Made by a program: the position numbers and the translations under genes. The notes under the pieces were generated by a model. It was not told where the DNA came from. It saw only the letters and a list, made by a program, of their open reading frames with translations, and made no database searches. A DNA stretch of 64,000 bases, from contig CAVZQC010000005.1 in assembly GCA_963777315.1 (NCBI GenBank), positions 64,001 through 128,000 of the forward strand, given 5' to 3'. The stretch is from Vulcanimicrobiota bacterium (lineage in GTDB: Bacteria; Vulcanimicrobiota; Vulcanimicrobiia; Vulcanimicrobiales; Vulcanimicrobiaceae). How positions within the stretch are numbered: position 1 is the first letter of the stretch; every line of letters starts with the position of its first letter. Positions 32,100 through 34,234 of the stretch are shown here, piece by piece.

Positions 32100-32143
32100 G
32101 AGCTCGTAGGCGCTTGCGCGGCAAGCCCCGAAGGCTCCTGCGT

Positions 32144-33403
32144 TTGAACCGGGATCCTGACGATCGAAACGCTTCGCAGCGCAACGTATTCAGCTTTGTC
32201 GCCTCATTGCTGCTGCACGCGCTTGCGGCGTATTTTGTGTTTTCATTGGCGACGTCGTCGTCGCAGCAGGCCGCATCGGAATCGTTCTCGGGCAGTGCCG
32301 TCGTTACCGTTACGCGCGAAACTCCCAAGAAAACTGCTCCGGCCACGGTCGCGCGTGCGGCGGTTCCGGTTCCCAAAGCGCCGCCTGCCGCGCCCCCCCG
32401 CATACTGCACGAGCTTGCCAAGTTTGCCCCGACCGCACCGCCCAACCCCACGCCGGTTCCGCAGCGAACGCCCGCGCCCAGACCGGTGCCTACGCAGGTT
32501 GCGTTGGCCGCTACGCCGGCCCCGCTTCCCTCGACCGCTCCTACGACGGCGCCCATCCGTATCGCCGCCGCCGTTCGGACCGCCGCGCCGAAGGCCGTCG
32601 CTACCGTCGCGCCGCCCACCGCGGCGCCGACGGCCGCTCCCAAGCCGGCCCCTACGGCGCTTCCGACTTCGGCCCCGACGCCACGGCCTGAGCCTTCGGC
32701 ACTCTCGGCGACGCAGGCGCCGCTGTTGGCAGTCAACCCGCAGCCTCTCATCACGCCCGGGGCCCCGTCGCAGATTCGAATTCCGCATCCGGCAGCAACG
32801 TCTGCCCACGGCAAAGCGCCTCGACCCGGACCGACTGCCGTGGGCTCACCCGGTCCGCGCGGCTTCAAGGCGGTAAAAGGCCCGAGCGTCGTTCGGCCCG
32901 TTCAAGCCGCCACTCCCCGGCCCGTCCGAGTTCGGCCGGCGCCGCCGAAAAAACGTCAGTCGCTCGAGCAGCGGCTCAAAAGCCTGTTGCCGACGGCGGG
33001 TCCCTCGTTTACCCCCGAGCCTCCCAAGCACTACTCGTTCCTAGGCAACCTCAAGCCGACCCCGGAGCCCGAGCCGACTCCGCCCCCGCAAGTCATCGCG
33101 GCGACCAAATATCTCTACGTAGAAAACGTCGGCAGCCAGCGCTGGAAACAGTCTTTTCTGGGCACGGCGCCGGAAGAGGCATACGTGAAGATGTACGTCA
33201 CGCGGGTCAAGCGCATCGGCTTCGTCAACTGGTGCACCGGTTGGGTCGTGCGCGCGCCCATTGCCGGAAATCAGCACTGGATCGTCGAGGACAACGTCAG
33301 CTACATTTGCGCCGGGCACTTAGAGCCGTTCACGCCCCCTGCAGCGCAACCAACCGTGCGCAGTCCAGAGCCTGCGATAAGCGCCCAGCCGAAGGGTCCT
33401 TGA
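32144..33403 (+). CDS. Membrane-anchored Pro/Ala/Thr-rich protein with TonB/TolA-like anchor and an unrecognised C-terminal domain (start approximate)
   Basis: TM with SLLLH motif, long P/A/T linker, compact beta-rich C-terminal domain with two Cys. Confidence 0.65.
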   Translation: MNRDPDDRNASQRNVFSFVASLLLHALAAYFVFSLATSSSQQAASESFSGSAVVTVTRETPKKTAPATVARAAVPVPKAPPAAPPRILHELAKFAPTAPPNPTPVPQRTPAPRPVPTQVALAATPAPLPSTAPTTAPIRIAAAVRTAAPKAVATVAPPTAAPTAAPKPAPTALPTSAPTPRPEPSALSATQAPLLAVNPQPLITPGAPSQIRIPHPAATSAHGKAPRPGPTAVGSPGPRGFKAVKGPSVVRPVQAATPRPVRVRPAPPKKRQSLEQRLKSLLPTAGPSFTPEPPKHYSFLGNLKPTPEPEPTPPPQVIAATKYLYVENVGSQRWKQSFLGTAPEEAYVKMYVTRVKRIGFVNWCTGWVVRAPIAGNQHWIVEDNVSYICAGHLEPFTPPAAQPTVRSPEPAISAQPKGP

Positions 33404-33428
33404 TACCGGGCATTTGTCGGCGTACAAT
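33400..33428 (+). promoter_or_regulatory. Strong sigma70-type promoter TTGATA-17bp-TACAAT
   Basis: Near-consensus hexamers with 17-bp spacing. Confidence 0.8.
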
Positions 33429-33434
33429 GACGGA

Positions 33435-33594
33435 GTCTCACAAGACCAGTGAGCATCGACATAAGGAGGGCGGTTGGAACCGCAAGATCCACCGGGCGAC
33501 GCAGCCCGAAAGAGCGCGCCGTAACAAGAGCGCTAGACAAGCGCTCGGCGGCAGCCGGACGTAACCGGTATTCGGGCGCGCTCCATGTTGAGAC
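33435..33594 (+). ncRNA. Putative structured small RNA (6S-like or novel)
   Basis: Starts at the expected TSS; ends pair (GTCTCA/TGAGAC); several internal helices; followed by an intrinsic terminator; no convincing long ORF. Confidence 0.55.
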
Positions 33595-33606
33595 ACGATA
33601 GAACAA

Positions 33607-33650
33607 GACGAGGGGCTGCACCCACTGGGGTTGCGGCCCGTCGTGTTTTT
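33607..33650 (+). terminator. Intrinsic terminator
   Basis: ACGAGGGGCTGCACCC...GGGGTTGCGGCCCGTCGT imperfect stem followed by GTTTTT. Confidence 0.7.
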
Positions 33651-33727
33651 ACGGTAGTCTATGTCAAGGTTGATCGGTATGAGCGTGGGCAGGTCCCGCG
33701 CTTCATTGTTGATAGGGGATCGCTGCA

Positions 33728-34234
33728 GTGCAGCTCACTTTGGCGCAGGCATTCGGACGTGCGGTCGACGAAATCGCGCATGACGCCGGTTTTCCCGGCG
33801 TCGAAATCGTGCAGCACGCCGCGCGGCGCGCGCGCCATTCCACGTCGCTTTCGCTCACGATCGATCGCGAGGGCGGGATCGATTTGGCGACGTGCGAACG
33901 CGTCGCCGGGGCAATCAATAAACGGCTGGACGATCGCGAAGAACCGTATACCCTGCAAGTCGAATCGGCCGGCCTGAACCGTGCGCTGACCAAGCCCGGA
34001 GACTACCAGCGCTTTGCCGGACGCAATGCGAAGATCGTCACCTCGCTGCTCGTGCAGGGCGGCAAAACGCACCGGGGCGTCCTGCGCGGCGTTCGCGGAA
34101 CGAACGTCATTTTGCAAACGGACGACGGCGAACTTCCGTTGCCGATAGCAACGATCGAAAAGGCCAACCTGGAATACGACATCCGCGCGGATCTCAAACG
34201 TGCCAAAGAGGAGCGCAAACAGCACAATGCCTGA
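33728..34234 (+). CDS. rimP: Ribosome maturation factor RimP
   Basis: LTIDREGGIDLATCERV, YTLQVESAGLNRAL; upstream of nusA. Confidence 0.92.
   Translation: MQLTLAQAFGRAVDEIAHDAGFPGVEIVQHAARRARHSTSLSLTIDREGGIDLATCERVAGAINKRLDDREEPYTLQVESAGLNRALTKPGDYQRFAGRNAKIVTSLLVQGGKTHRGVLRGVRGTNVILQTDDGELPLPIATIEKANLEYDIRADLKRAKEERKQHNA

Follow-up and report, generated by a model that had tools for sequence, protein, structure and literature searches.

The window, that is, the whole 64,000-nucleotide stretch of a 2.83-Mb genome analysed here, contains a genuine stand-alone gene whose product is a folded RNA of ~200 bases. The RNA is frequent among the members of one soil-bacterial family, and we infer that it probably acts by engaging ribosomes. 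With a probability of roughly 0.5, we propose that it is a mini-mRNA of the rre kind that stands alone and would work through its contact with the ribosome and not through its peptide. The stand-alone unit, its conserved fold, the translational selection on its mini-ORF and its complementarity to the 16S rRNA tail are the parts of this reading that come from comparison. The RNA lies between a 429-aa Pro/Ala-rich ORF and rimP-nusA (Table 1). This ORF (window 32114-33403) has no Pfam match, and its stop codon falls within the −35 box of the RNA.

Table 1. Features of the RNA unit and of the adjoining rimP region, by position in the window
Feature	Position	Strand	Basis
Sigma-70-type promoter of the RNA, −35 TTGATA (33400-05) / 17 nt / −10 TACAAT (33423-28)	33400..33428	+	promoter scan
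5′-terminal hairpin GTCT/AGAC, loop variable in relatives	33435..33446	+	by eye; probability 0.22
Shine-Dalgarno (SD); pairs with own 16S over 7 contiguous positions as first half of the tail complement	33462..33469	+	
4-bp stem GCGG/CCGC, start codon TTG (33474-76) in loop	33470..33483	+	
16-codon mini-ORF, TTG start, (M)EPQDPPGDAARKSAP	33474..33524	+	
GATCCACCG, which encodes Asp-Pro-Pro and forms the second half of the tail complement	33486..33494	+	
CGGGC/GCCCG hairpin inside the ORF, seen in the rimP-linked subfamily	33493..33508	+	
3′ three-way domain: closing stem and hairpins 33528-33546, 33554-33569	33512..33583	+	fold, covariation
Intrinsic-terminator-like hairpin and short U tail	33607..33650	+	fold, covariation
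Putative separate rimP promoter TTGCGG / 18 nt / TAGTCT, over the terminator 3′ arm	33631..33660	+	
Conserved rimP leader hairpin, part of rimP and not of the RNA	33681..33703	+	
rimP (neighbour, followed by nusA)	33728..34234	+	

As in the stand-alone transcripts of the rre kind, the unit has both a promoter and a terminator, its ends being predicted from the sequence. The near-consensus promoter of the original prediction was confirmed, with a 10/12 consensus match and one site found versus 0.2 in shuffles; the transcript start would be expected near 33434-36, and a promoter-like site lies at most 170 nt upstream in 120/129 family loci versus 3/99 control windows. The predicted intrinsic terminator stood in part: its hairpin (33607-33642) is present and covarying, with two-sided changes in 4/11 pairs, though it has a short U tail, and a simple scan did not list the terminator. 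This terminator is placed 83 nt past the stop codon of the mini-ORF, and in an equilibrium model of one sequence its probability stays at 0.888 with ribosome footprints forced unpaired. Five rimP loci without the RNA keep a promoter-like site similar to the putative rimP promoter, at 17-18 nt spacing. Based on the promoter-like sites, the varied and convergent neighbours, the rimP promoter-like site at loci without the RNA, and the unresponsive terminator, we infer that the unit is a gene of its own; the stand-alone unit foreseen upstream of rimP-nusA-infB, with its own promoter and terminator, was thus upheld, and the same unit occurs at unrelated loci. The rimP leader itself carries a highly conserved hairpin with a T-rich tail, which is also found in one sister-family genome (L430) and is absent in the more distant family, whose rimP lies inside an operon.

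This locus included, the unit occurs in 23/28 aligned rimP-upstream regions. A strict pattern found the core in 158/263 family genomes and in 0/5 and 0/32 genomes of the two sister families, and matched twice in controls, and a covariance model found it in 32/47 further family genomes, which had been chosen for lacking strict matches, and in 0/13 sister-family genomes. The same model gave four weak matches in other classes (E 0.003-0.04), and no credible match appeared in any of five negatives that were re-searched, four of them 92-96% complete. Most genomes have one locus, and 18/131 loci have a tandem pair of cores. Members are positioned before rimP, after a gene that we take from its translation to be VKOR-like, or divergent from a pyruvate-dehydrogenase-like gene; the same-strand next genes at non-rimP loci are NUDIX, TetR, amtB or oxidoreductase genes, and the convergent next genes are rpiB (L127, L129), an M16 peptidase (L092) and an aspartyl protease (L115). 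A metagenome scan returned 119 matches, mostly by chance. Members were retained on the evidence of SD plus stem, and L138, L308 and one match of L030 were discarded as fortuitous; viral contigs returned 90 pattern matches, none credible among the matches listed. Loci L010, L017, L019, L029, L323 and L338 and a few tally rows come from unpublished genomes (set G028, G019, G021, G029, G234, G262, G367, G384 and G396), and no conclusion relies on these alone. No paper on this RNA in the phylum was found in the literature searched, in which coverage of subscription journals was thin.

Contigs of relatives cover 33458-33583 in four RNA-library runs from four soil metatranscriptome studies, at depths of up to 12,151 (X10), 6,169 (X1) and 120 (X11), and run X9 is flat at depth 3-5 and DNA-like. 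As the contigs in question derive from other strains, their depths establish that the RNA is present in RNA libraries and hint that it is abundant in relatives, and do not give strand, ends or rank. The lack of contig cover on the flanking genes was not counted, since the genes of the relatives may be below 80% identity.

The region folds far better than shuffled sequences (z −5.6 with the terminator and −4.5 without it), and the three stems named in the original prediction are present in the sequence. In the alignments of relatives the unit is conserved, and 12/34 tested pairs show two-sided changes among 26 rimP-linked RNAs, where shuffles give 3.5 and slid controls 1-6; kinship among the RNAs inflates such counts. 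Within the 3′ three-way domain, which is missing from the shortest family member (L345), the pairs of the two hairpins were scored, and two-sided changes occur in 4/6 pairs of the first and 2/5 of the second. The start-codon stem is 95.7% paired across 47 cores, and its loop-closing pair covaries (GC 25, AU 13, GU 7, UA 1). Supportive variation is absent from the remaining three pairs in these 47 cores; later matches add the stem variants GCAG/CUGC and GCAA/UUGC. Other parts of the fold first drawn gave way: the covarying fold is multi-stem and not a single 6S-like rod with a bubble, the end-to-end GTCTCA/TGAGAC pairing has an ensemble probability of ~0.11 versus 0.22 for the local 5′ hairpin, which recurs in relatives, and the proposed sequestration of the SD by the 3′ segment CTCCATGTTGA amounts to 0.01 expected pairs in an unconserved segment.

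The SD-like TAAGGAGG and the 16-codon TTG ORF had been noted before and are confirmed in the sequence, and the core of the family runs in the order SD, 4-bp stem with the start codon in its loop, X-Pro-Pro-X and early stop. Altogether 149 distinct units were collected, which are kin and whose collection motifs required CC-N-CC; 95 of them came from searches without a start-codon demand, all 95 still being found by likeness to TTG-bearing members. In these 95 units, an in-frame near-cognate start lies between SD and core in 95/95 (82 NTG, of which TTG 60 and CTG also used, the rest being ATT, ATA, ATC and ACG), where the two alternative frames have 14 and 6, and a stop within 19 codons occurs in 95/95 in frame, versus 36 and 35 out of frame and 0.35 in composition shuffles. 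All three stop codons are used among the 149 units (TAG 71, TAA 55, TGA 23), the frames of 3/149, from one genus, run on for 27-30 codons beyond the core, and 3-nt insertions in L127 and L335 preserve the frame. Peptide conservation is limited to the N-terminal X-Pro-Pro-X core, with lengths of 8-34 codons and unconserved tails read in shifting frames. When three mismatches were free anywhere, the matches, judged by eye, had the first and second bases of the Pro codons unchanged in 86/86 and the third bases varying, and Gly follows Pro-Pro in 123/149 units through all four Gly codons. The Asp codon is GAT in 134 of the 149 units and GAC in 1; the first Pro codon is CCA in 123/149, a codon that makes up 7.7% of Pro codons genome-wide here, and the other third bases at this position are G 21 (able to pair with the 16S U as well), C 5 and T 0. 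These preferences point to constraint at the RNA level. Judged from these sequence comparisons, the mini-ORF is under translational selection, and therefore the RNA is a mini-mRNA, with a short ORF behind an SD and a weak start codon, as is required of rre RNAs. The earlier suggestion of a novel sRNA holds as regards a conserved stand-alone small transcript with no Rfam match, and has to be amended in that the mini-ORF is selected for translation. Second tandem units in L021, L119, L127, L129 and L329, in frame by eye and kept outside the unit counts, start at GTG, 9-10 codons ahead of Pro-Pro, and have a longer hairpin.

The complement of the own 16S tail begins AAAGGAGG-T-GATCCA-G-CCG, and the RNA lays it out in two halves, as AAGGAGG, the start-codon hairpin, a linker of usually two purines, and GATCCA-CCG. 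In the second half, GATCCA is exact, CCG pairs after a one-base bulge, and TCC is also able to pair with the SD. Minimum-energy dimers with the 16S tail of this genome have both halves paired in 146/149 units, and the mean net energy over 50 units is −7.7 kcal/mol for the anti-SD alone, −9.0 for the single-stranded tail and −11.5 with two more bases. By position, 144-149 of the 149 units are 16S-compatible at positions 2-8, 136 at position 1 and 111 at position 9, where the CC positions were demanded by the collection rule and independent support comes from the 86/86 matches unchanged with three free mismatches. In this genome, GATCCA lies 8-45 nt after 17/2650 GGAGG sites. A looser split pattern gave 10 matches in 22 outside genomes, none like the unit, and contiguous rre-like sites, considered as a complementary distribution, are merely scattered (35/206 family and 4/25 sister-family genomes). 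Several observations temper the 16S pairing. The strictly single-stranded tail adds merely ~1.3 kcal/mol, and a larger gain would require the opening of helix 45 in the 30S structure. No 16S covariation was seen, as A stands at GATCCA base 1 in 13/149 units and the 16S is unchanged in 5/5 checked genomes with such a variant. Self-pairing of TCC with the SD, predicted in 84/149 units, is a partial alternative account of TCC, and the CCA preference could instead reflect a rare codon or inheritance.

Among known RNAs, the closest likeness is to rreB and rreR of Alphaproteobacteria, which share with the present RNA the stand-alone form of 165-210 nt, an ORF of 14-18 codons with a weak non-ATG start, an SD partly closed by structure, a clade-restricted peptide, a variable gene neighbourhood, and both 16S-tail elements, AAGGAGG and GATCCA. 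As far as the available sections of the describing paper go, rreB has 165 nt and 14 codons, is weakly translated, co-sediments with 30S and has a turnover tied to initiation, and its supplementary oligonucleotides give the site as SD + T + GATCCA + GTG (PMC5711450). However, in rre RNAs 16-17 contiguous complementary bases run up to the start codon, whereas here the start-codon hairpin splits the halves, the second half stands inside the ORF and reads Asp-Pro-Pro, and tandem double units occur; the rre hallmark of at least 16 contiguous 16S-complementary nt is replaced by 7, then 6 (+3 after the bulge) past the hairpin. The likeness is one of design, and 30S binding is predicted here from sequence. 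Our best reading is that the RNA works like rre and yet is not to be filed as an rre member, as it fails the defining contiguity test, which would make it an RNA of known kind and unsolved function; for rre-type mini-mRNAs, too, the describing paper, in the sections available, states the function to be unknown (Hahn et al., RNA Biol 14:1353, PMC5711450). The family would extend the rre kind to a distant phylum, and its split form, invisible to searches for contiguous 16S complements, suggests that the rre-type class is undercounted. It also suits clean tests, since the pairing, the start codon and Pro-Pro are separately changeable and minimal, tandem and core-less variants exist naturally. Rfam gave no match at the locus to E 10, none at the gathering score in the window and nothing credible in 11 homologous loci, and Ms_IGR-5 (RF02471) gave no covariance-model match at the element in 4/4 carrier genomes to E 10.

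For this rre-like mini-mRNA we propose the following steps, in which 30S docking via both halves, weak initiation, the Pro-Pro pause and ribosome-linked turnover are conjectural. In the resting RNA, the SD would be partly closed by the downstream UCC. Upon binding of a 30S subunit to the SD, GAUCCA(CC) past the hairpin could add to the pairing with the 16S tail in the form of a three-way junction, which would hold the 30S without initiation; opening of the hairpin would then let the weak start be read, the second half leaving the 16S tail, and the ribosome would pause at Pro-Pro, codons 6-7, before early termination. As its likely output, the RNA would hold or sample ribosomes, and its turnover would be coupled to initiation, as reported for rreB. 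By the geometry of the ribosome, the second half is barred from 16S pairing while the frame is read, so the docking model needs two states. A stronger form, in which the RNA clamps the whole 16S 3′ tail with the start codon in an extruded loop and toggles between a parked 30S and a short translation pausing at Pro-Pro, we consider rather unlikely; if true, it would be an RNA device storing or testing ribosomes in slow-growing soil bacteria, and one stretch would at once pair with rRNA, act as anti-SD and stall the ribosome. Weighing against this clamp or storage is that 20-fold overproduction of rreB left growth unaffected, which its authors, in the sections available, take as evidence against simple ribosome sequestration (PMC5711450).

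The conserved Pro-Pro codons also allow the main rival explanation, a possible, though doubtful, one that can hold together with rre-like docking, namely that the RNA reports diprolyl stalling. Ribosomes short of EF-P or prolyl-tRNA would pause at Pro-Pro, and the pause would alter the fate of the RNA (stability, processing or exposure of the 3′ domain), with the 16S likeness as a by-product of the anti-SD stem. The constant first and second bases of the Pro codons (86/86), the Gly that follows in 123/149 units through four codons, and an encoded EF-P with a PGKG loop fit this explanation, as do published excerpts in which DPP and PPG count among the arrest motifs that EF-P relieves (PMC6544042, PMC4140641) and proline-plus-acidic leaders serve as sensors (MgtL, PMC12856214). 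However, amino-acid selection leaves GAT over GAC and CCA over CCG unexplained, E. coli without EF-P paused at 2.8% of PPX motifs only, by the available part of PMC4140641, and no downstream output was found, the terminator being unresponsive in silico and the 3′ domain absent in L345. By the accessible portions of PMC12856214 and PMC8092293, MgtL and MgtQ resemble the present RNA in that prolines and acidic residues lie early in a short ORF, but are cis-leaders of Mg2+ transporter genes, whereas this RNA is self-terminating with no fixed downstream gene.

That the peptide itself is the product, as a short proline-rich effector, is improbable: the conserved N-terminal M-x-(P/S)-Q-D-P-P-(G/K) and the maintained frame would fit it, but the starts are weak, the SD is mostly paired in 133/149 units, the tails of 8-34 codons shift frames, and conservation acts at the codon level. 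The leader-peptide attenuator of rimP-nusA-infB that had been suggested, sensing initiation capacity, would make sense of the weak start beside IF2 and RimP and of the presence in 23/28 rimP-upstream regions; it becomes quite improbable with other members preceding TetR, amtB, NUDIX or oxidoreductase genes or facing convergent ones, a separate rimP promoter-like site that is kept without the RNA, and a terminator far past the stop codon and indifferent to ribosome position, so that comparison of loci and the one-sequence equilibrium model gave neither a ribosome-dependent terminator nor a fixed regulon. Titration of CsrA through GGA motifs is very improbable, even though CsrA is found in this genome and in 2/2 family genomes tested, several GGA motifs occur and cores are in tandem at 18/131 loci: the loop-exposed GGA, a motif repeated in CsrB/Rsm decoys, is confined to the rimP-linked subfamily and gone from most members at other loci, the remaining GGAs are predicted to be paired, the frame signature is left unexplained, and one sister-family genome has CsrA without the RNA. 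The divergent 6S RNA of the original prediction can practically be dismissed, as size and apparent abundance in RNA libraries resemble 6S (RF00013) but the locus has no match to E 10, a multi-stem covarying fold in place of a rod with a central bubble, and a coding signature, and the best match of the genome lies elsewhere.

That match is a 6S-like RNA with conserved 6S motifs on another contig (G000:C2:535300-535484, minus strand; L031), which adjoins an rpiB-like gene, scores 21.5 bits, below the Rfam cut-off, and is kept in 3/4 relatives tested (L369-L371; 21.5-43.1 bits, all below the cut-off, over four family genomes). A T-box likeness of the loop was rejected, as it is lost in many members and just ~35 nt lie upstream. 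A substitute for tmRNA was rejected as well, since a normal tmRNA and SmpB are encoded elsewhere in the genome and the locus has neither a tRNA-like domain nor a tag frame without SD, the features by which tmRNA is recognised. The tmRNA lies at G000:C1:138750-139103, minus strand (L373), with 118 bits in Rfam, and was missed by ARAGORN. Protection of 16S from RNase R also found no support, as 5/5 genomes searched (G000, G005, G024, G037 and G044) gave only S1-domain fragments of RNase R and no RNase R over the cut-off; an SD oligonucleotide is described, in the available part of the source, as protecting 30S (PMC10901742).

A second small promoter-hairpin-terminator unit follows the VKOR-like gene at G000:C2 ~819020-819190, minus strand (L312, L435). 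It has a GCTGAG-loop hairpin and no SD/ORF core, and is conserved in four further genomes (G020, G011, G007 and G002), while the copy in G016 (L322) retains the core; this unit is possibly a core-less sibling RNA with a function of its own.
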